Below are positions 10,481 to 39,284 of a stretch of DNA of 64,000 nt, piece by piece. Origin of the DNA: a virus. Lineage: Duplodnaviria > Heunggongvirae > Uroviricota > Caudoviricetes. Numbering within the stretch: the first letter of the stretch is position 1; each line of letters starts with the position of its first letter. Below the pieces are notes generated by a model. The model had not been told where the DNA came from. It saw only the letters and a program-made list of their open reading frames with translations, and ran no database searches. Both the position numbers and the translations under genes were made by a program. The stretch lies in the IMG/VR virus record IMGVR_UViG_2850796239_000011, positions 29,227-93,226 of that record; one strand, given 5' to 3'.

Positions 10481-10567
10481 TGGCTAATTTATCCCCTGTA
10501 TCTGTTGTGCACGAAAAAGTGCAGTGAGGTGTACTGGCAATAGCGGACACTACCATTTGTTCTTTTT

Positions 10568-11386
10568 TTAAGCAGCCATCTGATGATATTTTTCCCTGAA
10601 GGCTGCCGGGGAGATATTCCCCAGACGAGAGTGACGACGCTGACGATTGTAGAAAATCTCAATGTATTCCCGTATTACTGAGATGGCTTCATCCCGGTTA
10701 TTAAAACGATAGTGGCTCAGGCTCTCATTTTTCAGCGTTCCCCAGAAGCTTTCCATCGGAGCGTTGTCGTAACAGTTACCTTTACGCGACATTGATGTTT
10801 TCAGACCAGACTGCTCCTGTATGACCCGGTAATCGTATGCGCAGTACTGTGAACCTCGATCAGAGTGGTGGATTAGCCCGGCAGGTGGGCGCTGGCTCCT
10901 GAGCGCCATAAACAGGGCTTTACCTGTCAGCTCTTTTGTCATGCGCTCTCCCATGGCGTAGCCGACAATTTCGCACGTATAAACATCTTTGATGCCAGCG
11001 AGGTACAACCATCCCTCCTGTGTGGCAACATACGTCAGGTCCGCCACCCAGACCTGATTTGGTGCTGTAGGAGCGAACGTCTGGTTCAGCAGATTTGGCG
11101 CAACTGGCAGATTGTGGTTCGGGTTCGTAGTCGCTCTGAACTTGCGTTTCTGCTTACAGCGTAGCCTTAGCTCCTTACGAAGACGTGCCAGTCGGTCACG
11201 ACCAACGATGATGCCATTCTCTGCCAGCTCCGTCTGGAGCCGCCGGGTTCCATATGTTTCGCGAGTGCGGATATGTGCCACCTTAATCTCCAGTTTTAGC
11301 CGCTCATCACTTTGTTTTCTGTCTGAGGGTTCATGCTGTACCCAGTTGTAATAACCGCTCCTGGATACACCAAATACCTGACACAT
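10568..11386 (-). CDS. IS600 transposase OrfB (DDE domain)
   Basis: 272 aa, IS3-family catalytic core. Confidence 0.9.
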   Translation of the reverse strand: MCQVFGVSRSGYYNWVQHEPSDRKQSDERLKLEIKVAHIRTRETYGTRRLQTELAENGIIVGRDRLARLRKELRLRCKQKRKFRATTNPNHNLPVAPNLLNQTFAPTAPNQVWVADLTYVATQEGWLYLAGIKDVYTCEIVGYAMGERMTKELTGKALFMALRSQRPPAGLIHHSDRGSQYCAYDYRVIQEQSGLKTSMSRKGNCYDNAPMESFWGTLKNESLSHYRFNNRDEAISVIREYIEIFYNRQRRHSRLGNISPAAFREKYHQMAA

Positions 11387-11421
11387 CGCTTCAATGGGAA
11401 ATTGTTGTCGCCATTGTTCGA

Positions 11422-11724
11422 TTAACGCGTATTTTTCAGCGACTCCTGTGCAAAATACGCTGTTGCTTTTTTTAATATATCTCGCTCAAGGCGAGCTTCA
11501 TTTAACGCCTTACGCAGTTGCAGAATTTCAGATTCCAGTTCAGCCACCGTGCGGGAACCAGGAGTACCGAGCCCTTTTCTGGCGGCGGTAACCCATTGTC
11601 CTAAAGTGCCTTCAGGAAGGGATAATCGGGAAGCGCCTTCACTGATCGAAAGTTGATTTTCAAGAACCGTTCTGACAGCTTCGGCTTTGAACTCTTTAGA
11701 GTAACGTTGGGTTTTTCTGCTCAT
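11422..11724 (-). CDS. IS600 OrfA (HTH)
   Basis: 100 aa, MSRKTQRYSKEFKAEAV..., leucine zipper. Confidence 0.9.
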   Translation of the reverse strand: MSRKTQRYSKEFKAEAVRTVLENQLSISEGASRLSLPEGTLGQWVTAARKGLGTPGSRTVAELESEILQLRKALNEARLERDILKKATAYFAQESLKNTR

Positions 11725-12296
11725 TATTAGCTCCTTCTGATGCCATTCTATTTCAGGAAGGAGTGTCCGTTAAACTCAGGCTACCTCACAGATCGTTATG
11801 ACAATTGAAAATGGCCAGGTAACAGATGTCTGCAAAGTCCGCGATGGAGAGCTGATTGCCAGCATGGATACATTCATACGGCTGGCAGAAAGAGCGGGGT
11901 ATCAGATAACAGCACCTGCTCAGGAGGAAACCAGTGACATTAACAGCAACACGAATTCCTGAGTGGGTCCACCAGCAGGCGTTGCTGGTCCTGCGGCGGT
12001 ACAGATGCCGACGTATATTCCCGCATCGGATACAGCGCAACGGATATCTCAGTCTGAAGGTTAACCGTCGCTGGCGGCTGTTATCGAAAGACGACGGCCG
12101 GAACTGGGAAGTAATGAGTCATGAACGTTATTCGGGGGAAATAAAGAAATGATCGACAACCGCACCGCCAGCGCCATTGACCAGGCATTACAGAAACATG
12201 ATACACCCGTCGGCCCGTTATTTTTTGTAACACGCCACGGAAGAACAAAAAAAATGCCTCACCCGAAAAACGGCAATTCGTTACCTGGCATTCTTT

Positions 12297-12542
12297 ATGA
12301 CCACCCGCGCTTTTGAACGTTCAGGATTCCGACAACGCCATCCTGACAAGCGTTTTATCTTCAACGGGAATGAGATATGGAAACGTGGAGAATCAACCAC
12401 AGAGTATACCCGCGCACACCAGCGAACAATCAGACGACTGCGCAGACTCATCGCCAGGAAACAGTATACAGAAAAATGGTTCAGAAAATATGACACATGG
12501 AGCGCCGGATATTACGAACTGATGGCAACAAAACCATTCTGA
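12297..12542 (+). CDS. Hypothetical small protein (81 aa)
   Basis: One of several small same-strand ORFs (also 11934..12152, 12149..12322). Confidence 0.3.
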   Translation: MTTRAFERSGFRQRHPDKRFIFNGNEIWKRGESTTEYTRAHQRTIRRLRRLIARKQYTEKWFRKYDTWSAGYYELMATKPF

Positions 12543-12602
12543 CGTAAACGAAATTAACCATGACGCAATTAAATAAGGCAAGCCGAATACATCAGGAGGA
12601 CC

Positions 12603-12791: not shown

Positions 12792-13016
12792 AAAAAACAA
12801 TTGCGCTTGTTTTCGCGGTCAGTCTGGCTGTCTTCGGACTTGTAGGTTGCGATCGCGTTGAACCAGGTAATGTGGGTATCAAAGTCAACAAACTGGGCGA
12901 CGACAAAGGTGTCGGTGAAGTGGTCGGTGTTGGTCGCTACTGGACTGGCTGGAATACTGAAGTGAACCGCCCCGGGAATCCTGGAGACTAAACTTCCTGA
13001 GAAAGAGGTAAACAGG

Positions 13017-13342
13017 ATGACTAAAAATACTCGTTTTTCCCCGAAGTCCGTCAGAGGGCGATTCGTATGGTTCTGGAAAGTCAGGGCGAATATGACTCAC
13101 AGTGGGCGGCAATTTGTTCCATTGCCCCAAAGATTGGCTGTACACCGGAGACTCTGCGTGTCCGGGTACGCCAGCATGAGCGGGATACCGGAGGCGGTGA
13201 TGGCGGGCTCACCACCGCTGAACGTCAGCGTCTGAAAGAGCTGGAACGTGAAAATCGTGAACTGCGCCGCAGTAACGATATCCTTCGCCAGGCTTCCGCT
13301 TATTTTGCGAAGGCGGAGTTCGACCGCCTCTGGAAAAAATAA
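13017..13342 (+). pseudogene. IS629 orfA with frameshift in a C4 run
   Basis: Translation leaves the OrfA frame after MTKNTRFSP at CCCC 13039..13042 and resumes at 13067. Confidence 0.6.
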
Positions 13343-14229
13343 TGCCACTGCTGGATAAGCTGCGTGAGCAGTACGGGGTCGGACCGCTATGCAGCGAACT
13401 GCATATTGCCCCGTCAACGTATTACCACTGTCAGCAACAGCGACATCATCCGGATAAACGCAGTGCCCGTGCGCAGCGCGATGAGTGGCTGAAGAAAGAG
13501 ATACAGCGCGTATACGATGAAAATCACAAGGTATACGGTGTGCGTAAAGTCTGGCGTCAGTTGTTACGGGAAGGTATCAGAGTGGCCAGATGCACTGTGG
13601 CACGTCTCATGGCGGTTATGGGACTTGCCGGTGTTCTCCGGGGTAAAAAGGTCCGTACGACCATCAGCCGGAAAGCCGTTGCCGCAGGCGACCGCGTAAA
13701 CCGTCAGTTCGTGGCAGAACGACCTGACCAGCTGTGGGTGGCTGATTTTACTTACGTCAGCACATGGCAGGGCTTCGTCTATGTGGCGTTCATCATTGAT
13801 GTGTTTGCCGGATACATCGTGGGGTGGCGGGTCTCATCGTCCATGGACACGACATTCGTGCTGGATGCACTGGAGCAGGCGTTATGGGCCCGTCGACCGT
13901 CCGGCACGGTCCATCACAGTGATAAAGGTTCTCAGTATGTATCGCTGGGCTACACACAGCGGCTTAAGGAAGCCGGATTACTGGCATCAACAGGAAGTAC
14001 AGGCGACTCGTATGACAACGCGATGGCGGAGAGCATCAATGGTCTTTACAAAGCGGAGGTAATACACCGTAAGAGCTGGAAAAACCGTGCAGAAGTGGAA
14101 CTGGCCACACTCACGTGGGTGGACTGGTATAACAATCGACGATTGCTGGAAAGGCTGGGCCATACTCCTCCGGCAGAAGCAGAAAAAGCTTATTATGCTT
14201 CCATCGGAAACGATGATCTGGCAGCCTGA
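13342..14229 (+). CDS. IS629 transposase OrfB
   Basis: 295 aa, DDE transposase. Confidence 0.9.
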   Translation: MPLLDKLREQYGVGPLCSELHIAPSTYYHCQQQRHHPDKRSARAQRDEWLKKEIQRVYDENHKVYGVRKVWRQLLREGIRVARCTVARLMAVMGLAGVLRGKKVRTTISRKAVAAGDRVNRQFVAERPDQLWVADFTYVSTWQGFVYVAFIIDVFAGYIVGWRVSSSMDTTFVLDALEQALWARRPSGTVHHSDKGSQYVSLGYTQRLKEAGLLASTGSTGDSYDNAMAESINGLYKAEVIHRKSWKNRAEVELATLTWVDWYNNRRLLERLGHTPPAEAEKAYYASIGNDDLAA

Positions 14230-14965
14230 GTTCACAGATAAAACACTCTCCAGGAAAACCGGGGCGGTTCAGAAGTTTACATTTTCCCGACCTTCAAGCA
14301 AATGAAGACCTACGATGAACCGTTCAGTTTCCAGATGAGTGACGGCACAACCATCGGCTATCACATCGGCGTGGCCTACAAAGTTGATCCATCCAAAGTT
14401 ACCACAGTCTTTCAGACTTACCGCAAAGGCGTGGATGACATTACCGACACTGACCTGCGCCAGAAAATTGCCGACGCACTCAATCGGCTGGCCAGCAAAA
14501 TGACCACTGACAAATTTATCGACGGCGGCAAGTCTGAACTACTGGATGCCGCACTTAAAGACATTCAGGAAGAGATGACACCCATCGGCATTCAGGTAAT
14601 GAGCCTCTCTTATGTAGGTAAACCGGAATACCCTCCAACCGTTATCGACAGCATTAACGCCAAAGTCACGGCAAACCAGAAAACCCTGCAGCGCGAACAG
14701 GAAGTCAAGCAACGTGAAGCGGAGGCCAACATGCTACGTGCGGAAGCTGCCGGACAGGCTGATGCCATTCGAACAAAAGCCCAGGCAGAAGCCGATGCCA
14801 TTCGTTTACGCGGCGAAGCTCTACGCCAGAACCCAGGCGTCATGGAGCTGGAAGCCATCAACAAGTGGAACGGTACACTGCCGCAATACATGACCAGTGG
14901 TGCCAATACACCATTTATCCAGATTAAATAACTTATATGCCCGGCAGGCCGCCGGGCTAAGGGAA

Positions 14966-15295
14966 ATGCAGATGAACACCCAGAATACTCAACCGCAAAT
15001 AATGAACTATGACCCGAATCTGACGTCATGCGGACGCATGGCAAAACAAACCGTTCGATTAACTTTCGGACTATGGGAATACCGCGAAACATTCGAAGTT
15101 ACTGTCGGCGGCAATCTGACCGGACTGGATGTTATCAGTTGCGCTATTGAAAGCCTGTACGCAACGCTGCCTTATGAAGAAGTCGAGGATGAGCGCACAG
15201 GGGAAACAGATATCATGGCCACCATTAATATTGGCGAACTGATATGTCAGGATGAAGACCTGTCCGGAGAGCTCTGGCTTGCCGGGATGCTTTGA
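14966..15295 (+). CDS. Hypothetical protein, 3' end interrupted by IS600
   Basis: Stop codon is the first TGA of the IS600 end; frame continues after the IS to ~16608. Confidence 0.45.
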   Translation: MQMNTQNTQPQIMNYDPNLTSCGRMAKQTVRLTFGLWEYRETFEVTVGGNLTGLDVISCAIESLYATLPYEEVEDERTGETDIMATINIGELICQDEDLSGELWLAGML

Positions 15296-15356
15296 GGTAG
15301 CCTGAGTTTAACGGACACTCCTTCCTGAAATAGAATGGCATCAGAAGGAGCTAATA

Positions 15357-15659
15357 ATGAGCAGAAAAACCCAACGTTACTCTAAAGAGTTCAAAGCCGA
15401 AGCTGTCAGAACGGTTCTTGAAAATTAACTTTCGATCAGTGAAGGCGCTTCCCGATTATCCCTTCCTGAAGGCACTTTAGGACAATGGGTTACCGCCGCC
15501 AGAAAAGGGCTCGGTACTCCTGGTTCCCGCACGGTGGCTGAACTGGAATCTGAAATTCTGCAACTGCGTAAGGCGTTAAATGAAGCTCGCCTTGAGCGAG
15601 ATATATTAAAAAAAGCAACAGCGTATTTTGCACAGGAGTCGCTGAAAAATACGCGTTAA
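15357..15659 (+). pseudogene. IS600 orfA with nonsense codon (Gln24 to stop)
   Basis: GAA AAT TAA at 15420..15428 versus CAA in copies 1 and 3. Confidence 0.8.
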
Positions 15660-15694
15660 TCGAACAATGGCGACAACAATTTCCCATTGAAGCG

Positions 15695-16513
15695 ATGTGT
15701 CAGGTATTTGGTGTATCCAGGAGCGGTTATTACAACTGGGTACAGCATGAACCCTCAGACAGAAAACAAAGTGATGAGCGGCTAAAACTGGAGATTAAGG
15801 TGGCACATATCCGCACTCGCGAAACATATGGAACCCGGCGGCTCCAGACGGAGCTGGCAGAGAATGGCATCATCGTTGGTCGTGACCGACTGGCACGTCT
15901 TCGTAAGGAGCTAAGGCTACGCTGTAAGCAGAAACGCAAGTTCAGAGCGACTACGAACTCGAACCACAATCTGCCAGTTGCGCCAAATCTGCTGAACCAG
16001 ACGTTCGCTCCTACAGCACCAAATCAGGTCTGGGTGGCGGACCTGACGTATGTTGCCACACAGGAGGGATGGTTGTACCTCGCTGGCATCAAAGATGTTT
16101 ATACGTGCGAAATTGTCGGCTACGCCATGGGAGAGCGCATGACAAAAGAGCTGACAGGTAAAGCCCTGTTTATGGCGCTCAGGAGCCAGCGCCCACCTGC
16201 CGGGCTAATCCACCACTCTGATCGAGGTTCACAGTACTGCGCATACGATTACCGGGTCATACAGGAGCAGTTTGGTCTGAAAACATCAATGTCGCGTAAA
16301 GGTAACTGTTACGACAACGCTCCGATGGAAAGCTTCTGGGGAACGCTGAAAAATGAGAGCCTGAGCCACTATCGTTTTAATAACCGGGATGAAGCCATCT
16401 CAGTAATACGGGAATACATTGAGATTTTCTACAATCGTCAGCGTCGTCACTCTCGTCTGGGGAATATCTCCCCGGCAGCCTTCAGGGAAAAATATCATCA
16501 GATGGCTGCTTAA
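15695..16513 (+). CDS. IS600 transposase OrfB
   Basis: 272 aa, near-identical to other copies. Confidence 0.9.
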   Translation: MCQVFGVSRSGYYNWVQHEPSDRKQSDERLKLEIKVAHIRTRETYGTRRLQTELAENGIIVGRDRLARLRKELRLRCKQKRKFRATTNSNHNLPVAPNLLNQTFAPTAPNQVWVADLTYVATQEGWLYLAGIKDVYTCEIVGYAMGERMTKELTGKALFMALRSQRPPAGLIHHSDRGSQYCAYDYRVIQEQFGLKTSMSRKGNCYDNAPMESFWGTLKNESLSHYRFNNRDEAISVIREYIEIFYNRQRRHSRLGNISPAAFREKYHQMAA

Positions 16514-16641
16514 AAAAAGAACAAATGGTAGTGTCCGCTATTGCCAGTACACCTCACTTATCTCAGCAGAAATTATCAGTATTGAACCCGCTACAAACAT
16601 ACGGCTCTGAAGTTCTCACTATTCAGAGAGCAGGAGAAAAA

Positions 16642-16884: not shown

Positions 16885-17042
16885 AGAATGAATAAAGCGT
16901 TTGAGCTATGGGTACGCCAGCGTTACGGCAATCGCTATGACCTGACGCGAGATGTTGACGGTTTCTACTGTCGTGAAATTGTGAAACGAATGTTTGAAGT
17001 GTGGTGCCACTGCCGTGGGCTGAGTGTTGTGTGAGGTAATGC

Positions 17043-17279: not shown

Positions 17280-17334
17280 TTTAATGCCATGAAGTATGTA
17301 AGCTCGTATCGCTCTTGGGCGTCTGGAGGTATCA

Positions 17335-18648
17335 ATGGATAAAGTCAAATATCCAACAGGCGTCGAAAACCACGGTGGCACATTACGCATCTGGTTTAAT
17401 TTTAAAGGTAAACGTGTCAGGGAAAATCTTGGTGTCCCTGACACTGCCAAGAACAGGAAGATCGCCGGAGAGCTGCGGACATCTGTATGTTTTGCCATTC
17501 GTACAGGAAATTTTGATTATGCTGCGCAGTTCCCTGACTCTCCTAACCTCAAGGCTTTTGGGGTAAATAAAAAAGAAATTACGGTGAAAGAACTTGAAGA
17601 AAAATGGCTGGATCTGAAACGAATGGAAATCTCTGCAAATGCATTCAATCGCTATGAATCCATTGCAAGGATGATGGTTCCGAAGATTGGTGGCAACCGA
17701 CTGGTATCAGCAGTGACCAAAGAGGAATTGCTGTATATCAGGAAAGATTTGCTGACCGGATACCAAAATCCAACAAAAGGTAAAGCTCCAGTAAAAGGAC
17801 GAAGCGTTGTCACAGTAAATTATTACATGACAACAATCGCTGGAATGTTTCAGTTTGCTGCAGATCACGGTTACATAGAAGCAAATCCCTTCGAGGGAAT
17901 TAAGCCTCTTAAAAGAGCCAGGGCAGAACCAGATCCGCTAACTCGTGACGAATTTATTCGCCTGATAGATGCTTGCCGGCATCAGCAGACAAAAAACCTG
18001 TGGTCATTGGCTGTGTACACAGGAATGCGTCATGGTGAACTGGTCTCCCTGGCCTGGGAAGATATCGATCTGAAAGCAGGAACAATTACTATCAGGCGCA
18101 ATTATACGAAACTCGGTGAGTTCACTCTACCTAAAACTGAAGCAAGTACAAACAGGGTTGTGCATCTTATCCAGCCCGCTATCAGTGTCCTGAAAAATCA
18201 GGCTGAAATGACAAGACTGGGTAAGCAGCACAACATCAAGGTTCAACTACGTGAATATGGACGTTCAGTAAATCATGAATGTACTTTCGTATTTAACCCC
18301 CAGGTGGTTAGAAAAAGCAAACAGGTAGGTTTTATCTACAAGGTAGATTCCATTGGCGACTCATGGGAAACAGCCATTAAACGTGCAGGCATCAGGCATC
18401 GAAAGGCATACCAGTCACGACACACTTATGCGTGCTGGTCATTATCTGCCGGAGCAAATCCAAGCTTCATTGCCAGCCAGATGGGGCATGCAAGTGCCCA
18501 GATGGTGTTCAATGTATACGGAGCATGGATGACTGACAGCAATGCAGAACAGATCGCAATGCTGAATCAGAAGCTGGCAGATTATGTCCCAATGATGTCC
18601 CATGGTCACCAAAGTGACACAAGAGGCTTATTAAAATCAGTGAGTTAG
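17335..18648 (+). CDS. Tyrosine integrase (437 aa)
   Basis: Arm-binding N-terminus and C-terminal catalytic region with R...HxxR...Y context. Confidence 0.9.
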   Translation: MDKVKYPTGVENHGGTLRIWFNFKGKRVRENLGVPDTAKNRKIAGELRTSVCFAIRTGNFDYAAQFPDSPNLKAFGVNKKEITVKELEEKWLDLKRMEISANAFNRYESIARMMVPKIGGNRLVSAVTKEELLYIRKDLLTGYQNPTKGKAPVKGRSVVTVNYYMTTIAGMFQFAADHGYIEANPFEGIKPLKRARAEPDPLTRDEFIRLIDACRHQQTKNLWSLAVYTGMRHGELVSLAWEDIDLKAGTITIRRNYTKLGEFTLPKTEASTNRVVHLIQPAISVLKNQAEMTRLGKQHNIKVQLREYGRSVNHECTFVFNPQVVRKSKQVGFIYKVDSIGDSWETAIKRAGIRHRKAYQSRHTYACWSLSAGANPSFIASQMGHASAQMVFNVYGAWMTDSNAEQIAMLNQKLADYVPMMSHGHQSDTRGLLKSVS

Positions 18649-18751
18649 CTTTTAATACCCGTCATGTTAACTGTTAATGAGGGCATTGAGTCGGGGGCTG
18701 GCAGCATACTGCGCAAGCACAGTGGCAGCCACATTCTGCACGTTATGCCTC

Positions 18752-20337: not shown

Positions 20338-20349
20338 GTTTTCTCCTGT

Positions 20350-22886: not shown

Positions 22887-24373
22887 CCTGTTACCCCGCT
22901 GGAATAAACCGACACAAGCGCCGAATTCGTGATACGCCGACGTGCGTCATCGGTAATACCCTTCACATTGTCCGACGTTGTGGTGACATTCAGTGTCCCG
23001 ATATGCGTGGTTTCCGTTACGGTGGACTGCGATACAGGCGCAGGATGGCGCGACCGTATGGCCATTGCCGCACCCGGATAAGGCAGGTTCGCCAGCACCC
23101 GCGGAATATAGTTGCGGGTCTCCTCCGGAGCAGCAGCCAGTCCCTTACGCTGAACATTTCCCTCTCCCCAGTTATATGCCGCCAGAGCCTTAGCCAGATC
23201 GCCATGAAAAAAACGTATCAGGCCACCAAGTTTTCTCGCGGCGGCATCAGCGGCTTTTTCGGGATCAAAGGCATCGTTCCCCTCAGACCAAATTCACTGG
23301 CCGTCTTCGGCATGAACTGAAACAGTCCCATCGCACCAGCAGGTGAGACGGCAAACTGATTACCACGGGATTCGGTGATCGCAACGCTGCGCAGCAGTCC
23401 GGGCGGCAGGTTATATTTTTCCTCCAGTTGAGACAGTTTCGGTTGCAGCCAGCCTAACAGGGCTTCCCCGGTCTTCGTCGGTCGCTGGCGGTTTTGCATG
23501 GCATTACCGAGTTTTTCCTGCGTCGCACGCATACCCTGTAGCCAGGATTCACCGAAGGCTGCTTCCCTCCCGGTTGCCTGAGAAGCCTGAGTATCCAGCA
23601 TGCCCTGCTGCCATACTGTGGGTGATTGTGCCCGGGTGATGTTGCCAGGCTTTTCTCCGGCATCCAGTTTTGTCTGATACGTCTCCATCTCTTTCTTATT
23701 GAAAAAGAAAGTCCCGTCTGAAGCCCAGAAAAAACCATGTGAATCCAGCCAGTCCTTATTTTCCCTGCCAACAATGGATGTCAGTAATCCGTCAACAACC
23801 GGGTAAAGCGCCGTTATCGCAAAAAGAAGGCCTCCGGGGCCACTGAGGGCTTTTGTCAGCCCCCCGCACCCATGACGCCACTTTCAGCCCGATCAGCGTA
23901 ATAATGGCATTCTGCCAGCCCCCCAGTTCTCCGGCAGCCTTATTCGCCAGGGAGGCCACTGACTCAACGTCATTCAGAAATGTGGTGATAAACCTGTTCA
24001 CTTCCTCCGGATGTTGCTGCATCCAGTCACCGAGTGTCTCCAGCCAGTGGCTGAGCTTCAGCGCGTACGGCATCAACGCGGTGCTAATCGTCATCCCGAT
24101 GCCGGACCAGGTCTGATCGAGCTCAACAAGCTCTTTTCGTAGCTTACGGGCCAGCGCTATACGCCCCGGCGTAACCTGCGAACGGGAAGTAAATTCGTCC
24201 ACATCTTTCAGCGCATGACCGGAGCCAAGAAACTGCTGTCCGGCATAACTGAAGCCCAGCGCGTTGCCGTAGGCAGTTTGTTCGGACTTTGTCAGTCGCG
24301 GAAAAATAACCGCCAGCTTGCGCATGATGGCTTCAGTGCTGTCAGTATTTAAATCAACACTAGGCTGTGTCCC

Positions 24374-24889
24374 TTAATTACGTAAGCGTTGATAAAAGAG
24401 TCGGATGCAGCCCAGTTTCACCATCGCCAGGTAATTTCTCGCCGTTTTGTCGTAACGCGTGGCGATGCGGCGATATTCTTTCAGCCGCCCAAAGCACCGT
24501 TCAACGACATTACGATTGCGGTACGCATCACGATCAAGCTGTGCACGTCCATCCGATGCCATTTTCTCATTTGACTTTCGGGGGATTACTGCCTTTATAC
24601 CGTTATTTTTCAGCTCGTTGCGCAATGCGCGCCCTGAATACGCTTTATCAGCCAGTACCGCATGTCCACGGCGTTTCATGCTGCCGTTCTGACGCTGAAC
24701 GCCAATCCCGTCCAGAAGTCGTTGCGCGAACTGGCTTTCATGAGCTTGTCCGGGGCTTAGCACGATATTTAACGGGAGGCCACTTCCGTCTGTTGCCAGA
24801 TGGATTTTGGTGCCAAAACCGCCGCGAGAGCGACCCAGCCCATTATCTCCGTCGATATCGGGATGTTTTTTTGAGCACCGGCGGCACAT
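24374..24889 (-). CDS. IS5-family transposase OrfB (DDE part)
   Basis: Downstream overlapping frame; intact in this copy. Confidence 0.7.
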   Translation of the reverse strand: MCRRCSKKHPDIDGDNGLGRSRGGFGTKIHLATDGSGLPLNIVLSPGQAHESQFAQRLLDGIGVQRQNGSMKRRGHAVLADKAYSGRALRNELKNNGIKAVIPRKSNEKMASDGRAQLDRDAYRNRNVVERCFGRLKEYRRIATRYDKTARNYLAMVKLGCIRLFYQRLRN

Positions 24890-25218
24890 TTCAGCGCCCG
24901 GATATTACTGCCATCCAGCGCGGTGGCAGACCAGTCAATAAAGCCGTTTGCATCAAGTAGCGAAAGCAACCTGTTGAAAATAATATTAATCACGCCTGAC
25001 TTTGACCATCGGTTAAAGCGGTTATAAACAGTTTTCCATGACCCATATCGTTCGGGTAAATCGCGCCATGGTGCACCGGAACATAACACCCAGAACATGC
25101 CATTGATGATTTTACGGTGCTCAGCCCATGGGCGTCCGGCCCGTGGTGTGGCGGGTTCAGGAGGTAACAGGGGCTTGATGATGGTCCATGCCTCATCGGG
25201 AAGGTCGTAGCGAGCCAT
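24769..25218 (-). CDS. IS5-family transposase OrfA
   Basis: LPDEAW...GRP...WRDLPERYGSWKTVYNRFNRW motif. Confidence 0.8.
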   Translation of the reverse strand: MARYDLPDEAWTIIKPLLPPEPATPRAGRPWAEHRKIINGMFWVLCSGAPWRDLPERYGSWKTVYNRFNRWSKSGVINIIFNRLLSLLDANGFIDWSATALDGSNIRALKCAAGAQKNIPISTEIMGWVALAAVLAPKSIWQQTEVASR

Positions 25219-26029
25219 AGTTCAATATGTTGTGTAAACAGACAGTTACTATAGCTCAGATGATTAAGGGACACAGCCTAATGCCCGCCCTGGCTGCAAC
25301 CTGAAACAAATCCTGTAACACAGGATCAAAGGACCTTCCGGCTCTGAAGGCCGCTTTTGCATTTGCAAGCCGGGAAAATGCCCCAGACATTTCCCCTTCA
25401 TCAACATTATTTGCCCGCGCAGCCCGTAACCATCCGTCCAGATTTCTGGCCTTCATGCCAAAAGCATCAGATTCCACGGACAGACGGTTCAGATCACGGG
25501 CAAAACCTGTTACCAGGTTCTTCAGCCCCCCCAGCGTCAGACTGACACCCGCAAGAGCCAGAATCTCGCTACGGATCCCTGAAAAAAAACGGGACGCCCG
25601 TTTCCCGGCATCTTCCATTCGACGGGCCGTTTTATCAGCATCTTTTCCGGTTTTTTCCAGTGATTCACTGGTTTTCTTCTGTCCCTGACTGAATGTGTCA
25701 GCGACACCTTCCATCACCGTCGTGAGCCGGTTAAGGGCAGCATGTACTGCCTGTTCCCCGGCAGTAAAGTCCCTGTCATCAATCCCGAGGGACAGAACAA
25801 GCTCATCAAGTACCTGCGCCATTTCTGTTCTCCTGTATCACCTGTTCGTTATGGGCATCCACATGAATTATTTCCAGCAGATCCCATAAGTCCTGCACAC
25901 CAAGGACAGAATCCAGTTCAGCTTTTGAAGCCTTACCGGAGGAGATAACGGTCGCAATGGTACGGGGAACATTAACGTAATCCACCACCCCGAACGGTCT
26001 GTCGGGGTCGAGATAACGCGGGGGGATAT

Positions 26030-28365: not shown

Positions 28366-28891
28366 TATCAGCCTCCGTTGTCCGGGTGATCACGTTGTCA
28401 AAAAACATCAGGGAAGTTGTGACCACAGGGTTAATCTGCATCTGAATATCAAGCGTCCAGCGCGGTTCATACTGTTGCTGACCGTTGGGGAATGTGGTGT
28501 TAAAGGGCTCTGAGCAATACAGCGGGGAAATCAGCCCACCGCCCTGCCGGAAAAGCCGTACGGAAAATTCAGACCGGAAAAGCGTTGCCAGCACCTGCGC
28601 GTTATCTGCCGCGTGAGGGCCGTAGAAATCAAGCTGGCAACGCCATTTTGTGGTACGGGTGATATGCTGAGAGCCCTCACCAGCCTGCGCTGGCGCAGAA
28701 TATGCCACTACCGCAGTGGATAATCCGGTAACATCAATGCCCGTCATGGTGATGAAATTCCCCTGAGGCATCGGGACCTGGTTCTGCTGCGTTCGTTCAA
28801 TCCCGGCATCAGAAAAAAGCCCCCGGAGATAATCACCGAGGGCCTGATAAAGAGCGCTTTCCGTAACGGAGAGGGTCACACCTGAAGGCAT
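28346..28891 (-). CDS. Hypothetical tail protein
   Basis: 181 aa. Confidence 0.45.
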
Positions 28892-29241
28892 ACAATAACC
28901 CTCGTCCAGTCAGGCCAGATTTCCGGTACCTCAATCACCAGCCACGTTTCATCGCCAATAACAAATTTATCGCCTCCCTGTTGCCGGGCACGGTTAAGCC
29001 CGCACCAGTTACCATCGGTATACAATGTGGCGAAAACTCCCTGCTGGTTAAGATTATCAAGATGACGTAAATCAGCCTGGGTGACAGCCTGCTTTTGCAC
29101 CCTGACGGAAACCGGATCTTCATACTCAGGTACGCGGGAATAATCTGCCTGCTGTGTACTCCCGCGGGAACGATAAACCAGCGCGTCTGTAAAGGGATTT
29201 ACCCGACGTACTGCGCCGGAAACAATACCGTGAAAGTTCAT
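28876..29241 (-). CDS. Hypothetical head-tail protein
   Basis: 121 aa. Confidence 0.45.
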   Translation of the reverse strand: MNFHGIVSGAVRRVNPFTDALVYRSRGSTQQADYSRVPEYEDPVSVRVQKQAVTQADLRHLDNLNQQGVFATLYTDGNWCGLNRARQQGGDKFVIGDETWLVIEVPEIWPDWTRVIVCLQV

Positions 29242-29822
29242 TTTTTGCCCCCGTCTACAGAATAATCAACGCTGTCCATCATATGTCCGGTTTCAATAAG
29301 CGGGTTGTTAAAACCCTTTTGCCGGGCAGTGGATGCAGCGTTGGGCGGACTTTCCCAGTCGCGAACAGACATCTGCAACTGCCCTTTGATATGTTCTCCC
29401 ATACACACCAGAGCGGTCGCAGTATCAAAATCATTCGCCCGTAATAAGGTCGCCATTTTTTCGCCCCATTCGGGACTTTTATGTTCGATCATCTTACGGA
29501 AGAACGGACGGGGGGGAATGGTGACCGTGTGCTCAGGAATAACCACATCCTGAACAAAATTCCCTTTACCGGCTTTGACAAAGCGGTGCCCGGTTTCTCC
29601 CGTTTTTTCGTTATAGCGAAAGTGGAGCGTCTGCTCACGGGCGGGTATGACCGCTCTTCCACCAAACTCCTGAACTGCGGCAATATAAGCCACTGACGTA
29701 CCGTCAGGGTAAGTTGCTCCCTCAAGAAAACCCACTTTGAGTTTTTTACCCAATGAAAGGTTCGCGGCAACCTGTTTCAGCTTCTGCCGGAACTGTTTGC
29801 CACCTGTGACTTTATTTACCAT
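29238..29822 (-). CDS. Virion morphogenesis/tail completion protein
   Basis: Start reassigned to MVNKVTGG; upstream part of track ORF is out-of-frame overlap. Confidence 0.5.
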
Positions 29823-30270
29823 CGACGCCCCTCCCGTATCCCCGGTAATAATGCCCCGGATATCGCGAAGGTGACCCCCCGGAATGATACTGCATTGAGC
29901 GGTATGGCGCTGTCGCCTGCCAGTAGTCAGCACCCCAGGGGGTCTGGAGATACCACCACGACGCATCATTACTGCCGCTATTATCCACCGATACCGATAC
30001 AGAACCTTCCGACGCACTGGTGATACGCCCCACCAGACCAGCCTGCCCGTCTCTCCCGTTTCCCAGCCCCCGCAATGCGCACAGATGCGCAACCAGCAGG
30101 AACAGAAGCTGTTCCCGCTCCTTCAGGTCGGTAACCGGACTGTCGTCCGTGTTATCCAGGTACAACGCGGTCGCCTGGTTAAACACCGCCGTCAGTAGCT
30201 CCGGTGTCACCGTGGAAAACTCCGGGTACAGACTGACAAACATCCGACAGTCAAACGTCACCGTACCCAT
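29812..30270 (-). CDS. Head-tail connector-like protein (DUF4054-like)
   Basis: 152 aa. Confidence 0.45.
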
Positions 30271-30275
30271 AGCGT

Positions 30276-30614
30276 TTACTCCTGAGGTTTACCCATCACT
30301 TCATCATTGCGGTTAACGCCCGGAGCCGGATTTTTCTGCGGCAGCGGTTCAAGGCCGGATTTAACGGCTTTCTGCTCCGTAGCCTGCGAGACTGCACTGT
30401 TCGCCTTATCCTGCGCAAAAATAACGCCATTTTTCACATAAGGTTGCTGTCCGTGCTCCGCCAGCCAGGCGTCAAAAAACACCTTATCGACCTGCGTCAG
30501 ACCATAGCCCCCACAATTTTAACCGCGTTATTCCGCCAGCCTGCCACCTGAACCCGTTTCTGACCCACTTCCAGCACCAGACCGTTCGGCAGTTTGCAGC
30601 CCACTGTTACCATT
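30276..30614 (-). pseudogene. Hypothetical head protein with frameshift at a C5 run
   Basis: Two frames join into one ~110-aa protein across 30508..30512. Confidence 0.45.
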
Positions 30615-31652
30615 TCAGCCATAACTCACACCCCAGCATTTGTGCATACGCCAGCGGCTGGCGAATAATCGCCCCCAGGTACCAGCGGATTTTTTCTGTT
30701 TCCAGGAAGACGTATCTGCCACTACCGCATGGGCGCGCATTTTTTCAGTGAAAGCGCAATAGACTGTATCCTGTTCACCCAGACGCTCCGCGATAAGCTG
30801 TACCAGCTCGCCAGCGTCAGAGGTGTATTCCACCGCCGTTTCAATGGTCATCGCCGGGAAATTTTTCGCCAGCAGATCGGACACGTTAACCCTGTACTGG
30901 TTTGTTTTGGTGAGGTTCACCTCTGCCAGCGGCGACATGCACAGTTTCATTTTGTCGGTACGCTCAATATGACCGTTAGTCTGTTTCACCAGTTGCTTAA
31001 AGAGTTTCACGATATCGTCATACACGCCCTGTCCGTCCTTGTCGTCCCACTTCAGTTTACCGTCAACGGTATCCGGGGTGATTGGTGCAGATAACGACGG
31101 ATCATTCAGCAAACCGTAGTTCGTCAGTCCGGCAATACCGTAGAAATAGGACTTATTCTGGAACTTATTCAGCGTCAGTGCTGACGCCACGTTCAGCTCT
31201 GCCGCCCAGCCAATACGGGCTGCGCCGTACATCTCCAGCTCACGTTCGCCCCATACGGTGAAGGTCTGGAAGTGATAGCTCTGGCGCGGTACCCAGTTGA
31301 CGTTTGCGCTTACCACCCCGTTGTTGCTGTAATCCCCGTAGGAACTCACCTCCCCGTCAGATTCTGCAATCGGGAATTGTGCCGACAGTGTCGTCCAGTC
31401 ACCTTTTTTGGTTTCGCCCAGAATCTGAGCGGCTTTCATCGGCGTCACCAGCACGCGGATCAGTTCTGGCTCAACGTAATTGGTGAAATACGCAGGGATA
31501 CCGCTGTTAGCCGCTGTGACCAGCGCAGGCTGCGCGTCCATCGCCAGTCCGTAATCGGCGGCGTACTCCTTCGGCAAATAAGCCTGTGCTCCGGGAAGAA
31601 TAATCCCGTAGTCGCGACTTGCCGTCGCATAATGCTGTTTAAATTTATTCAT
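30615..31652 (-). CDS. Major capsid protein
   Basis: 345 aa after scaffold-like gene; C-terminal ~40 aa look out of frame. Confidence 0.7.
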
Positions 31653-32134
31653 TATTTACTCCAGGTACTGATCTTAATGACTTCTTTTGCCGCCGCAGCG
31701 CTGGCAACGGAAAACCAGGTTTCGACAAACCCCGCCATCGAGGTGCCAGCCGCCCCCGTGGCTATCTCCCCGGTGGCCAGTGAGGCAAATACTTTCTGCC
31801 CGATCGTCGCAGTAGTGGTGGTCAGCGCCCAGAAATCCCCCGACACCATCAGGGTGCATTCACGCCCCGGATAAATGGTGTTCGAGTCCCCGGCCAGCCA
31901 TTCCACAATGGAAGCCTGCCCGTCACGAGGAACAAAACCCGCCGGTGCGCCGACCCCCTTATTAGCGGCAACACCTTTGGTTACCCAGGCAAACCGGGCA
32001 ATTACCAGCCCGTCAGGGCCGGTAATCAGCCCGCCATCTCCCGCCACATACGAGGCATGAGGGTTAGCACTGGCAAACGCCCCCGGAATACCCGGTGCCG
32101 GGTACTGGTTCATGTGTGTCTGAAAAGTATTCAT
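31652..32134 (-). CDS. Head protein (decoration/structural)
   Basis: 160 aa, Gly/Ala-rich. Confidence 0.45.
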
Positions 32135-32135
32135 A

Positions 32136-33473
32136 TCAGTAACCTCGTTTCAGTTTTGCACCGGGGAAATCTGCCGCAAACGTCGATGCGCTGGCCTGAT
32201 CCATCGCCACACGAGGAGAGGATTTGGCCGTCTGCTTCTGCTCAACGGCAAACTTCACCATGCTGCGGTACGCACCGGGGTGAATACCCTGAATATCGAT
32301 CCCCGTCTGTTCCAGCGCGGTACGGTAAACATCTTCGGCGCAGTCCATCGCCACCACATCGCCAATCAGCGGTCGCACTTCAGCTTCAGCCACACGGACG
32401 GCGCGGAAATTTTCAGCAGCCCGTTTCGTTGCCTGGTCAGTTGCCAGCCTGATTGCTGCATCCATCGCAGGTTTATCGACTTTCACATCGTCGGGTTTCA
32501 CATCAGCCTCTTTTGTTTCGGGGGCTTCGTCGGTTGTCGGAGACAGTGCGGATTTAATTTTTTCCAGCACATCATCAGGAACTTTGCCGGACAGCAACGC
32601 CAGTACACTTTCCATCGGGCTGTCGGTATCAAATGCCTTCGACTCGTCAGTTAACCCGGTATCATCATCCCCGACCAGCTCCGGTACGGCTTCTGCTGAT
32701 TCCATCAGTTGCGCCAGCTCCGCCGGTTCAATATCCATATCCTGTGCCAGCCGTTCGCTGTAAGCAGTTTTTACCGCGCTGGCGATAGCTGCCGGACGCT
32801 TATACTGTAACAAATCCCCGGGAGCCGCATCCTGCGCCAGACGCGGCGCAAGATAGGTTCCCAGCGCGGTAAGCACCGCCACTTCTTTTTTACTCAGTTT
32901 CATGCGTTTTAGCTCCTGAGGGAGAGAGTCCATAACAAGACAGTCCGACCCTACCCGGCCATCGCCGACCAGGGCCACATGATTTCCCACGATATTCCGC
33001 ATAACGCCGTCATACGGCTCACCGTCGGGGGTGGTTCCCGGCGTCATATCTGCCACATAGGCATATGACGATGAGATTTCCCGTTGTTCATCCGTTTCTA
33101 TCCCCGCGATGGCGGAGTTGTCCCAGATGGACATGCCGTTAACCAGATAGGTACCGTCAAACTCGCTGTTGGCATGAGTCGTCCCCACCCGGTACTCGCG
33201 CGCGGGCGCGCCCGGATAATCGGGTTTGTGTCGGCACAGGACGGGAATATTGTTGAAGGTTGAAACTGCCTTGCGCAGTTCATCGGGGTCACGGTAAAGC
33301 TGATAAAGTTTTTTGGGGTCGAGTCCCAGCGCTTCCGCCCCCGGTATTTCATACCCGAAATAACCGCAGACGTTCGCCTTGCTGAGATTACTGCGCTCAA
33401 TCTGGAGGCGACCGACTTTATCGAACTGCCTTACCGATGCCCGGTCAAACGCCAGCATTTCGGTAATAATCAT
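32136..33473 (-). CDS. Prohead protease/scaffold-like protein
   Basis: Start reassigned to MIITEML; acidic Ala-rich C-terminal half. Confidence 0.5.
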
Positions 33474-34290
33474 TTTTTCTCCAGTCCGGGAATAACGGCC
33501 TCCCAGCCACACCGGCAGTTGATTTCTTCGCCCGGCAGTACCCACTTACCATCCAGAAACATCCCCTTTCGCAGGTCAAACCGTTTACCGTTCGCCTTCA
33601 CATGCGACGGACGCCATGTTTTACCCGCGCGGGAATGCCTCCAGACACCTTCAGTGATACCCACCGAACGCTGTCTGGCGGCCTGCATTACCGACGTTGC
33701 CTTATTGTTCTGGTCGCGGGCAATCAGCGCCGCGCGCCGTCGTGTGATGCCGTAACGTTTTTCCAGTTCATCGGTCAGCGTTTTCAGGTCACGTCCCCGG
33801 CCAACAGACTGCATGACCAGTGTTTCCACCTGGGTGAGATGTTGCTGCGGGATGGAGCGAATGAGGTTCACATTCTCCGTGATGCTGGCCTGAAGTGCGG
33901 TATTCATCTCCGTTGTCATACGGAAAGGAACCGTAAACCCGGCATCACGGAGCGCAGTGTACAGTGACGCATCGCTGTTTTTCAGGACATCACCGGCAAA
34001 CCGCCTCGCCAGCCGCAGGGCCATTTCGTCAAAATTTTTCTGCCAGCGCCGGGCAAGTTGCTGCATGGCACCACGCATCAGGTTAACGGGGACGCATCCT
34101 GCGCGAGGTCTGTTTTACGGTACTCAGCCCGCAGCCAGTAAAGTACACTGTTGTGCATCCCACTGACGGCATTATCCAGTTGTCTGCGGTACCAGGCCTC
34201 AATCCCCGCGTTGGGTGAAATCCGCCTCAGGGTCTGCATTCGGGCCTTGCGGCGGATTTTCTTCGGTGTTGTCAATTTCAGTGTCGTCAA
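33470..34290 (-). pseudogene. Head morphogenesis protein (Mu gpF / SPP1 gp7 family) with frameshift
   Basis: N- and C-terminal frames rejoin if GGGG at 34088..34091 gains one base. Confidence 0.55.
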
Positions 34291-35749
34291 TTTCGATGTC
34301 CCCGCTCAGGTCAATACCGCTGTACGGGCTGTCCTGCGCAGTCGCCAGCCGTTCGCGTACTTCGTTATTGGTCACTGCTCCGGTGCTCTCATAAATCTGA
34401 TCCGTTTCCGCCTCAGTTTTACGGATATTCGCCAGTTGCTCTCGCGTCAGTTCATGCAGGGGTTCAAATTCAAACGTGATATCAGGATCGATATCGCCGA
34501 ACTCAGACAACTGGATAATATCCAGCACCTTTTTCAGCGGTTTCTTCAGAAGACGGGTGGCAAGTGCAGCAATGGTGTCGTAAAACACCCGGATTTCACC
34601 CTCACTCGACGCATTCAGTCCCGTTGGGCTCAGCCCGGCGAATTTTACGGACGGTATGGCACTGACAAAGAACATGTGTTCCTGTGCCTGCGCCTGAAGG
34701 GTGTCGAGGCCGCTCAGGGGAGTGTTGAACTGGAAAAACTCTTCGTTCGTCTTGTCCAGCATCAGCAGCCCGCGGTTATCACGGGTACGGTTAAACAACT
34801 CCGCGCGTTTTGCGTAATTCGGGTCCCTTTTACCACTTAATACCTGTGTCATATCCGTCTTAATCCCGCTCAGCGAAAACGAATGCAGCATATCGCCCAC
34901 GCTGTCGCGTGTTCGCAGCCAGTTATCAACATAAGGCTCAGCAATCTGAACCAGTGACAGGCCGCCAAAGTTGTAGGCCGGCTTCAGCATGTCCGGAACC
35001 GGACGGGAGATCAGATCAATCATGCGGCTGGCGTGAACCGTTTTTCCCATTACGTACCATTCGGACGGACGGTAAAAATCATCACTCAGCGGATCATCCG
35101 CGTTATATATACCCGGATACGTCCAGACGGGTTCAATAACACGAAGCCCCAGCAGGGAACCTTTCGGGATTTTTTTGTCGGAAATAAACAGTCCGGATCC
35201 CAGCTCCGCCGGGTCAGTCCAGGCAGATATACCCGATGGCGAACGCACATCAATATAAATCTGCCCTCGCCCGAAAAAGCCGTCGTGCTCAATCGCCAGT
35301 CTGAAAACGTCCTGTACGTTATAGTGCTCCAGTGCGTCAGTAAGCTGCGCTATGCGTGACGCGTGGCTGTCGTCCCCTTCTCCGACCGCCTTAACCTTTA
35401 TCCACTTACGGGTCATCTCCTCGGCAAGCACACTGACCATACGCCGGTACTCCGGTAACTGCGCCTGAAGTGCCAGATACGGATAGCCCGGGAAACCACC
35501 ATAAACAAAATCAGGATAATGACTGTTCAGGGTGTCATACGGTGTTGCATCCATTGCCAGCACAGCGTCGCGAACCGGTGCCGGGATAACGCCCGGTGGT
35601 GGCTCATAGCGAACAAACTCCCTCCGTGGTTTCTGCCGGACGGAAGCGATCACCTCATCGTTAATTTCCGGTGGCTGTGGTTCAGGTTGTTTGTCCGGTA
35701 CCGCCGGCGCTGACGGTTCTTTTCGTTTAAACGGCCACATCAGATCCAC
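34199..35749 (-). CDS. Portal protein
   Basis: 516 aa between terminase and head morphogenesis genes. Confidence 0.8.
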
Positions 35750-37359
35750 TCCATAAAGTCATCAGAAATTACGATGGGCATTTCCATCGGGGCATAAGCA
35801 ATCATCACAGAATCAGCCAGGTTTGGAGATTTCGTTCCGTCAGGTTGCTTATCCACAAGAATTTTTCCGGTGGCATTTTTTGACCAGGTAGGTTGTGACA
35901 GCTCCATCAACAACCGGTCTTTATTTTCCATTGTGCTGCTGATGGAAATAATCTCATCCGGGTCATACTCCATACCCTGTAGTGCACGAAATGTATTGCG
36001 GAATAATTTGCGAAGATGCCACCACCCCTGGGCTTTGGCATTGACAAAAAAGTCCTTATTCAGACGAGCCGGTTTACCATTATCACCGGGAACAGCTTCA
36101 TTTTCAGGATGAAACACGCTCCCGCTGCCCCGGAATGGAGTGGCGGTGATTTGACAGATGCCCTCCGCTTCACGCAGTTCGTTGATAGCGCGCGCATCAC
36201 CACGAACGCCAGCACCCAATCCGTCCTCATCAAAGCGAAACTCATCGGCACCAAAGTCATCGCACAGACCAAAAACCTTAACCACAGAGTCATAGATGTC
36301 ACTCCCCTTACCTGACCACTCCTGTACGTCATTCAGCAGGATGCCATAACGGAGCGAACAGGCGTTTTTATCCCGCCCTTCGTCGGCGACATCCATTGCA
36401 CCAAGCCGTTGGCCGCCGGGCTGAATGCCCAGTCTGATATGTGCATCAACCGCAGCCTGTACCCATTCTGAGGGGATCAGGATGCCTTCTGCTGATGCCT
36501 GGTAATTAAGATCCAGTTCCTGGGCAACGATGACTGGGTTATCAATTTTATCGCACTCCTTGTGATACCACTCATCGTCTTTACGCGGATCGCTACGCCA
36601 GTGAAACGTAAACACCGGGATTTTTCCACTGTGCCGCTTCTGTGCGAAGGGGTTGTTCATGCCGTTAACCGATGAGAGATCGATACGACATCGGGTTGTC
36701 TGAGAAAGCGCGGCATCAATAAGTAATGGTCGCTGGAGAAAAGCAGCCTCATCCACAAAATAAAGGGTCGTACGGTCACCACGACCGATATTATCGCCAG
36801 CCTCACCTTTGATAACCGCGCCAGTTTCAGGAAACTCAACACGCATATATGGCGCGTGCTTCTTCTCGCTCCACGAACCGCGAAACTCTACAGGTAGCGT
36901 TTCCACGAACTTGCGCGCCTTCCAGAACAATGCCTTCGGGTCACCGGTGCTGTCGACGTATTCCTCTTTACGGGAGCCGAAACCGATAACCATTTCTTTG
37001 TTGAAGAGACAAAGCGAGCAGGCCAGTCCGATCGCGGTCCAACTGAGCCCCATTTCACGGGATTTTTCGGTAATACCATTCTCCCGATTGCTCCAGCGTT
37101 CCATAATCCAGTGGATCCACTCCTCCTGCTTAGGGAAGAGTAAAAACGGAATGGTCACCGGCAGGCCATAATCAATATTACGCGGGTCCGTTGTCATGCC
37201 CCAGTCGATGATGAACTGAGCCGGATTGGTTCGGTAAAACTGCTTCAATACGGGCAATATTTCAGGGTTCTGGCGAATGCGCTGTAGGCGTTCCATCCGC
37301 CATTCAAAAACCATCTGGTAATCAGGATGTTTAAAATCGAAGGGGAATGGTAACGGCAT
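35740..37359 (-). CDS. Terminase large subunit
   Basis: 539 aa; Walker-like motifs and nuclease-domain acidic residues. Confidence 0.9.
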
Positions 37360-37491
37360 ACTTAGCCCATCATTTTTCTATACACCTCTGCGGCCTGCTC
37401 AGGCGTTAATTTGGTAATTTCTGTTCTGACTGGTCCTCCGTCAGCGCCTGAGGTGTACTGGCAATAGCGGACACTACCATTTGTTCTTTTT

Positions 37492-38310
37492 TTAAGCAGC
37501 CATCTGATGATATTTTTCCCTGAAGGCTGCCGGGGAGATATTCCCCAGACGAGAGTGACGACGCTGACGATTGTAGAAAATCTCAATGTATTCCCGTATT
37601 ACTGAGATGGCTTCATCCCGGTTATTAAAACGATAGTGGCTCAGGCTCTCATTTTTCAGCGTTCCCCAGAAGCTTTCCATCGGAGCGTTGTCGTAACAGT
37701 TACCTTTACGCGACATTGATGTTTTCAGACCAAACTGCTCCTGTATGACCCGGTAATCGTATGCGCAGTACTGTGAACCTCGATCAGAGTGGTGGATTAG
37801 CCCGGCAGGTGGGCGCTGGCTCCTGAGCGCCATAAACAGGGCTTTACCTGTCAGCTCTTTTGTCATGCGCTCTCCCATGGCGTAGCCGACAATTTCGCAC
37901 GTATAAACATCTTTGATGCCAGCGAGGTACAACCATCCCTCCTGTGTGGCAACATACGTCAGGTCCGCCACCCAGACCTGATTTGGTGCTGTAGGAGCGA
38001 ACGTCTGGTTCAGCAGATTTGGCGCAACTGGCAGATTGTGGTTCGGGTTCGTAGTCGCTCTGAACTTGCGTTTCTGCTTACAGCGTAGCCTTAGCTCCTT
38101 ACGAAGACGTGCCAGTCGGTCACGACCAACGATGATGCCATTCTCTGCCAGCTCCGTCTGGAGCCGCCGGGTTCCATATGTTTCGCGAGTGCGGATATGT
38201 GCCACCTTAATCTCCAGTTTTAGCCGCTCATCACTTTGTTTTCTGTCTGAGGGTTCATGCTGTACCCAGTTGTAATAACCGCTCCTGGATACACCAAATA
38301 CCTGACACAT
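37492..38310 (-). CDS. IS600 transposase OrfB
   Basis: 272 aa. Confidence 0.9.
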   Translation of the reverse strand: MCQVFGVSRSGYYNWVQHEPSDRKQSDERLKLEIKVAHIRTRETYGTRRLQTELAENGIIVGRDRLARLRKELRLRCKQKRKFRATTNPNHNLPVAPNLLNQTFAPTAPNQVWVADLTYVATQEGWLYLAGIKDVYTCEIVGYAMGERMTKELTGKALFMALRSQRPPAGLIHHSDRGSQYCAYDYRVIQEQFGLKTSMSRKGNCYDNAPMESFWGTLKNESLSHYRFNNRDEAISVIREYIEIFYNRQRRHSRLGNISPAAFREKYHQMAA

Positions 38311-38345
38311 CGCTTCAATGGGAAATTGTTGTCGCCATTGTTCGA

Positions 38346-38648
38346 TTAACGCGTATTTTTCAGCGACTCCTGTGCAAAATACGCTGTTGCTTTTTTTAAT
38401 ATATCTCGCTCAAGGCGAGCTTCATTTAACGCCTTACGCAGTTGCAGAATTTCAGATTCCAGTTCAGCCACCGTGCGGGAACCAGGAGTACCGAGCCCTT
38501 TTCTGGCGGCGGTAACCCATTGTCCTAAAGTGCCTTCAGGAAGGGATAATCGGGAAGCGCCTTCACTGATCGAAAGTTGATTTTCAAGAACCGTTCTGAC
38601 AGCTTCGGCTTTGAACTCTTTAGAGTAACGTTGGGTTTTTCTGCTCAT
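38346..38648 (-). CDS. IS600 OrfA
   Basis: 100 aa, intact. Confidence 0.9.
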   Translation of the reverse strand: MSRKTQRYSKEFKAEAVRTVLENQLSISEGASRLSLPEGTLGQWVTAARKGLGTPGSRTVAELESEILQLRKALNEARLERDILKKATAYFAQESLKNTR

Positions 38649-39284
38649 TATTAGCTCCTTCTGATGCCATTCTATTTCAGGAAGGAGTGTCCGTTAAACT
38701 CAGGCTACCTCAGCCAGTCACTTCATTTTTGACGTTGTCTTTAAACGCCTGAACAGAAACATGACGCCCAAGCAACTCAAGGTTTTTAACCTTATCAGGC
38801 CATTTGATTTTCTTCAGAAGTGCGGCGCTATCTGCGGATACCATCTCCACGACATCCATTCCTGATAGCGTTGTGCGCCATACCTTAGGCCAGTCTTTAA
38901 TGGGCTTTAGCTCACCGTTTTGCAGGAGAATGTCGAGCACATCCATCTGGTCGATTTCAACCAATCTACGAAGAACATAGGCGGCATCTATACCCGTCTG
39001 CTCAACGCGGGCGGATTTAAGTTCAGCAACGAATTTTTGAACATTAACATTTGCTAATAATCGAGATGCCTGCTCATTGGCGGTCTTCTCGCTGTAGCCC
39101 GCCCTGATAGCTGCCTGTGTGCCGTTCAGATCTTTCAGGTACTCACGGGCAAACAGCTCTTGTTTGTCGGTGAGCTTTGCCATTATTTGTGCTCCGTTTA
39201 TCCGTTAAAAGGGATATCAGTTAAGTTATCCCGTGTAGGGTATAAGCCATTATCAAGCCCACCCGTAGATGGGCTTTGTAATGG

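Follow-up and report, generated by a model that had tools for sequence, protein, structure and literature searches.

The window analysed here, a 64,000-nucleotide stretch of DNA, holds two adjacent degraded prophages that are interrupted by three copies of the insertion sequence IS600. The locus raises the question of how these copies came to lie where they do: did each arrive by a transposition of its own, or did the copies spread by recombination or duplication, and what did each arrival do to the gene that received it? A preliminary description had proposed three independent insertions, each into a gene and each copy carrying lesions of its own. The window corresponds approximately to positions 4,222,068..4,286,067 of GenBank CP026875.1 (assembly GCA_002950355.1, chromosome of 5,164,076 bp). 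A 20.5-kb locus of CP026875.1 was 100% identical to window positions 28710..49183, and a second look-up set window position 1 at 4,222,068. The host chromosome appears to be of the Shigella type, judging from its IS content and from its absence among the RefSeq complete E. coli genomes. The positions of all features are collected in Table 1.

Table 1. Features of the two prophages and their insertion sequences, in window coordinates.
Feature	Position	Strand	Details
IS600 copy 1	10525..11788	-	1264 bp; orfA 11422..11724; orfB frame 10568..~11400
IS600 copy 2	15293..16556	+	1264 bp; orfA start 15357
IS600 copy 3	37449..38712	-	1264 bp; both reading frames intact
CAG duplication, copy 1	10522..10524 and 11789..11791
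CTT duplication, copy 2	15290..15292 and 16557..16559
GCC duplication, copy 3	37446..37448 and 38713..38715
71-aa phage ORF (phrog_340; WP_000002320-type hypothetical protein)	10480..11962	+	cut after codon 15
DUF5406 gene (123 aa intact)	14972..16610	+	cut after codon 107
Small terminase subunit gene (Terminase_2; 184 aa intact)	37362..39183	-	cut after codon 157
In-frame TGA, copy 1 / 71-aa ORF	10525-27	+
In-frame TGA, copy 2 / DUF5406	15293-95	+
In-frame TGA, copy 3 / small terminase	38712..38710	-
IS629-like IS3-family element	12963..14271		1309 bp, in SPFH gene; 4-bp duplication GAAG
ISSfl7-like IS5-family copy	24363..25278		flanked by TA
ISSfl7-like IS5-family copy	41134..42048		flanked by TA
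Left prophage	window start to 18673		Q, DnaB, LexA-type repressor at 8094, accessory genes, excisionase, integrase 17335-18648
Left prophage attachment core TAATACCCGTCATGTTAACTG	18653-73		adjoins yecE (annotated as DUF72 gene) in relatives
Right prophage	~18666 to ~62600		contractile-tail module, portal, terminases, lysis genes, Q, DnaB, RecT/YqaJ
Right prophage large terminase	35740-37359
Right prophage repressor	51271
Right prophage lambda-type integrase	61513-62583
Pectinesterase-family (Pfam PF01095) gene	62717		after right prophage integrase

IS600 was described from Shigella sonnei. The copies in the window run from TGAGG to CCTCA, and their ends form imperfect inverted repeats with 19 of 27 positions matching. 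The first reading frame, orfA, starts at IS position 65 and encodes 100 aa. In its frame a slippery A AAA AAA G run (A7G) occupies IS positions 316-323, where orfB opens in the -1 frame, and an OrfAB product is predicted from -1 frameshifting on this A-run. OrfB, of 272 aa, scored 334 bits against NCBIfam NF033516 (IS3-family transposase), and precomputed Pfam matches placed HTH_Tnp_1 in OrfA and HTH_21/rve in OrfB. Eleven copies in E. coli RefSeq genomes were 99.4-100% identical to the window copies over the full 1264 bp, and the near-identical copies are labelled in RefSeq as ‘IS3-like element IS600 family transposase, programmed frameshift’, with a joined CDS. Across several genomes, a matched 3-bp duplication flanked 12 of the 13 IS600 copies examined. 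The window copies thus agreed with IS600 of the IS3 family in length (~1264 bp), in their TG...CA termini and 3-bp duplication, in the orfA/orfB frameshift layout with a DDE (rve) transposase, and in showing at least 95% identity to the named element. We assign the element to IS600, a name that rests on the RefSeq/PGAP annotation of near-identical copies.

A base-by-base comparison confirmed three full-length copies in the window, each exactly 1264 bp long, and aligned them without a gap. The only differences among the three were single-nucleotide polymorphisms at IS positions 134, 667 and 980, read in the sense of orfA. No 1-bp deletion was present: copy 1 had been described as 1263 bp long, starting at 10526 and lacking one T near an end, whereas it starts one base earlier and is as long as the other two. 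Copy 3 matched the consensus of the three copies and was identical to a copy in assembly GCA_000193915.2; copy 1 had the same sequence as copy 3 except for a C at position 980. Reading frames were intact in both. A repeat search across the window, together with BLAST, detected no further IS600 copies or fragments.

We next consider whether the three copies were inserted independently. Each is bracketed by its own pair of matching triplets, and all three pairs (CAG, CTT, GCC) were found duplicated as first described. For an empty-site test, the IS and one triplet were deleted in silico and complete E. coli genomes were searched for the rebuilt sequence. For each copy, an 80-bp stretch with the insertion point at its centre was matched in uninterrupted E. 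coli prophages with 0 mismatches and a single triplet (FDAARGOS_944 and ZH063 for copies 1 and 2, CFSAN029787 for copy 3), showing that the triplets are true target-site duplications produced by transposition. Over a longer span, the rebuilt 3584-bp left region was uninterrupted in 65 complete E. coli genomes, with 99.6% identity to FDAARGOS_944 and 95% to strains such as ZH063, and the rebuilt terminase region was 98.7% identical to CFSAN029787. Loss of an older IS from the empty sites would not be compatible with such exact junctions holding one triplet. The interrupted genes are annotated as intact in these relatives. Because the duplications match at each copy, no recombination between copies has occurred since insertion, and hence no inversion or deletion between them.

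These junctions also bear on the idea that the copies spread by homologous recombination, by segmental duplication or by movement of a composite transposon, which could be suggested by the near-identity of the copies and by the inverted arrangement of copies 1 and 2 around a 3.5-kb segment. Such spread does not accord with a separate matched 3-bp duplication at every copy, with flanks that differ from copy to copy, or with the colinearity of the 3584 bp, once freed of IS, with uninterrupted prophages at 95-99.6% identity. It is already refuted by the empty-site junctions, and we gave it practically no probability. As for a composite transposon in particular, the likeness ends with the inverted pair: the outer triplets of copies 1 and 2 (CAG and CTT) do not form a single outer duplication, each IS has a duplication of its own, and what lies between the two copies is the prophage's own sequence, in the same order as in relatives.

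Strain FDAARGOS_944 offered a further comparison. It carries the same prophage arm (99.6% identity) with IS600 elsewhere, once at the 3' end of the SPFH gene and once in the integrase gene, and has no IS600 at its counterparts of the window sites; thus, insertions of this kind arise independently in related lineages. By exact-protein look-up, three assemblies contained the truncated terminase product, whereas the truncated DUF5406 product was present in the source assembly and one SRA run. The terminase junction was absent from all RefSeq complete E. coli genomes. We concluded that three separate IS600 transpositions into three prophage genes are the best explanation of the locus, and almost certainly the correct one. 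The proposal of independent insertions without recombination between copies was therefore borne out by the distinct matched duplications, the exact empty sites and the intact target genes of related strains.

The copies had further been said to bear copy-specific lesions, and here the outcome was mixed. We compared alleles among 14 IS600 copies. In copy 2, a C>T change at IS position 134 converts orfA codon 24 from CAA to TAA (Gln24 to stop; window 15426..15428), as had been reported, and this is the only private disabling change: 134T was seen in copy 2 alone of the 14 copies, and in a single assembly. Copy 2 also has a C>T change at position 667 (Pro>Ser; window 15959), an allele that seven STEC copies carry as well. 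At position 980, copy 1 has C (Phe>Ser) and copies 2 and 3 have T, and the 980C of copy 1 is common to the IS600 copy in the SPFH gene of FDAARGOS_944. On this comparison we read 667T and 980C as standing alleles and not as lesions; copy 1 does not have the deletion ascribed to it. The window copies thus show no structural difference from IS600, and depart from it in the private nonsense codon of copy 2 and in the alleles 980C (copy 1) and 667T (copy 2). The presence of three different alleles indicates that the three window copies descend from different donor alleles.

Because OrfAB begins with OrfA, neither OrfA nor the OrfAB transposase should be made from copy 2, given its nonsense codon. 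To judge from its sequence, copy 2 has probably lost its own transposase. Its ends are intact, and it would be mobile only if transposase were supplied in trans from another copy.

Could the differences between copies, including the nonsense codon, instead be sequencing or polishing errors of a long-read assembly in repeats? The restriction of 134T to one copy and one assembly would fit such errors, and the one other contig with the DUF5406 junction extends only 28 bp into the IS. Moreover, the neighbouring IS629-like copy really is 1 bp short, with four C instead of five in the run at 13039-42; this deletion lies in its orfA and, as a 1-bp homopolymer deletion, is of the type typical of long-read error. 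However, 667T and 980C were found independently in other genomes, indicating that the assembly resolves copy-specific bases, and finished assemblies seldom contain substitution errors. We considered assembly error an improbable source of the differences.

We identified the interrupted genes from annotation in uninterrupted relatives and from family searches, and every insertion proved to lie in a gene, as had been claimed. Copy 1 entered a 71-aa ORF that matched phrog_340 (E = 5e-25), copy 2 a DUF5406 gene (Pfam, E = 4e-22), and copy 3 the gene for the small terminase subunit. The truncated small terminase is 157 aa long; it keeps the whole Pfam domain and loses the last 27 residues, whose codons are displaced to 37445..37362.

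The three truncated ORFs end in the same way. TGA is read inward from both ends of IS600, and an in-frame IS TGA ends the target ORF at all three junctions in the window. All three insertions happen to lie between two codons of the target, so that the opening triplet of the IS serves as stop codon for every truncated ORF. The preliminary description had recognised this at two junctions (15293 and 38710..38712); both stand, but the count was one short, because the ORF interrupted by copy 1 is terminated in the same manner. Three of three in frame, against one in three expected (p = 1/27, 0.037), might suggest that IS600 has a frame or target preference, or that selection favours a clean end to the truncated host protein. 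The left end of IS600, where each of the three frames meets a stop within 13 nt (TGA, TAG, TGA), could be taken in the same sense; in any phase, a truncated product is terminated after a few codons.

We determined the insertion phase, within the rebuilt target ORF, for eight further IS600 loci in other E. coli genomes and for the two in FDAARGOS_944. The eight clearly assignable insertions had phases 0, 1, 1, 1, 2, 2, 2 and 2, so that only one of eight was in frame (two of nine if one ambiguous case is counted; one other locus was without a matched duplication). Pooled with the window, 4/11 to 5/12 of the insertions were in frame, which is indistinguishable from one third. Preference or selection is thus a very improbable account of the junctions, and the three in-frame TGA codons of the window are a matter of chance.

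IS600 is not the only insertion sequence in these prophages. The first 42 kb of the window contain six IS copies: the three of IS600, one IS629-like element and two ISSfl7-like elements. An empty counterpart of the IS629-like site was confirmed.

The two prophages meet at a joint of short imperfect homology (GTTAACTGT versus GTTAAAGCTGT). When the right prophage is set beside its relative in E. coli CFSAN029787, a strain that carries ipaH, most of DUF2612 is missing from it, as are the tail fibre genes and the ipaH side. One reading of this arrangement is that the left prophage, whose integrase is normally located at yecE, integrated into a secondary attachment site in the baseplate gene (DUF2612) of the right prophage, so that the locus would be a nested prophage and not a deletion joint; we hold this to be tentative and rather unlikely. 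In a phage collection, the 24-kb structural region had no close relative, and matches, at ~90% identity, were confined to the lysis module. The Q antiterminator protein is very common, with 7505 blocks matched. With its small terminase truncated, its tail genes interrupted and its tail fibre genes absent, the right prophage is probably defective, as far as gene content can tell.

The proposed course of events is as follows. IS600 encodes OrfA and, via predicted -1 frameshifting, the OrfAB DDE transposase, and its insertion duplicates 3 bp of the target. The element transposed separately into three genes of two adjacent prophages, with every insertion truncating its target gene. These insertions belong to the wider spread of IS and decay of prophages that are typical of Shigella and EIEC. 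Five IS, IS600 among them, have expanded in every Shigella species and in EIEC, and reference chromosomes carry 229-348 IS insertions each, together with extensive IS-driven gene loss (PMC7373316). The window resembles the expansion described by Hawkey et al. 2020 (PMC7373316) in its dense interruption of genes by several types of IS at lineage-specific sites. The mechanism is the same, but the targets here are all prophage genes, in contrast to the metabolic and chromosomal genes stressed in that study.

We concluded that the three IS600 insertions are routine genome decay, a phenomenon that is already known. They add three cases of pseudogenisation by IS600 in a type of genome that is known to contain hundreds of them, and they have little importance beyond annotation. 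For annotation, the genome can be curated with the help of the corrected coordinates and of the empty sites that serve as references, and copy 2 is identified as an IS600 copy that probably lost its transposase.

We found that a fourth insertion sequence, an IS629-like member of the IS3 family, is flanked by a 4-bp duplication (GAAG), and that E. coli FDAARGOS_944, which carries a relative of the left prophage, retains an exact empty site for it. When compared with full copies of 99.5% identity, the copy in the window was 1 bp short, because the C-run at 13039-42 holds four C residues and not five; the consequence is a frameshift at about codon 9 of orfA. The missing C may be a true lesion or a homopolymer sequencing error, and it may also be the origin of the claim, in the preliminary description, that an IS600 copy was 1 bp short.

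Insertion sequences in the window and in the comparison loci
Element	Sequence	Position	Length	Context
IS629-like (IS3 family)	window	12963..14271	1309 bp	within SPFH lipoprotein gene; fourth IS
ISSfl7-like (IS5 family)	window	24363..25278	916 bp	inverted relative to the next
ISSfl7-like (IS5 family)	window	41134..42048	915 bp	inverted relative to the preceding
IS600	L005, GCA_000193915.2, AERN01000031.1	1109..2372		left junction is the same terS::IS600 as in the window
IS600	L001, FDAARGOS_944	5417..6680 and 9009..10272		left prophage arm
IS600	L013, E. coli 2015C-4944 (STEC)	901..2164		
IS600	L010, E. coli 2013C-4187	901..2164		full copy
IS600	L010, E. coli 2013C-4187	1..886		second copy

The two ISSfl7-like elements, named after the RefSeq annotation of close matches, are 99.9% identical to each other, and each has TA on both flanks. 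One copy interrupts a tail-module gene annotated 'lytic transglycosylase domain-containing protein', at a site that is empty in CFSAN029787, an ipaH-carrying E. coli strain with a relative of the right prophage; the other copy sits between the holin and lysozyme genes.

At the joint between the prophages (window 18653..18680), the left prophage's attachment core adjoins, with no gap, the interior of the right prophage's DUF2612 baseplate gene, and the homology there is short and imperfect (GTTAACTGT versus GTTAAAGCTGT). The right prophage is without tail fibre genes. The joint reflects a deletion or, alternatively, secondary-site integration that placed one prophage inside the other. Within their Rha-family regulator genes, the two prophages have a 262-nt direct repeat of 82% identity (window 7070..7331 and 44718..44979), which is a paralogous module common to both.

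Among the 13 IS600 copies examined, only that of E. coli 2015C-4944 had unmatched flanks (AAT versus TAT). In GCA_000193915.2, where terS (the small terminase subunit gene) is interrupted, the far flank reads GCT... and not GGC..., and runs into Mu-type transposition genes, which suggests an IS600-mediated rearrangement in that assembly or a mis-join. The two copies in E. coli 2013C-4187 lie 14 bp apart in the same orientation, the second being incomplete because the locus ends there.

Every reading frame meets a stop codon within the initial 13 nt of IS600 at its left end (window 15293..15305): a TGA at position 1, a TAG at position 6 and a second TGA at position 11. Any ORF entering from the left side stops within five codons. 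FDAARGOS_944 carries a copy of the left prophage arm that is 99.6% identical and bears IS600 at two sites: the 3' end of the SPFH gene, where GTG is duplicated, and the integrase gene, where AAG is duplicated. Comparison of the left arms revealed no FDAARGOS_944 IS600 site in common with the window. We concluded that, because the sites differ, the same 9-kb arm has been struck repeatedly and independently.
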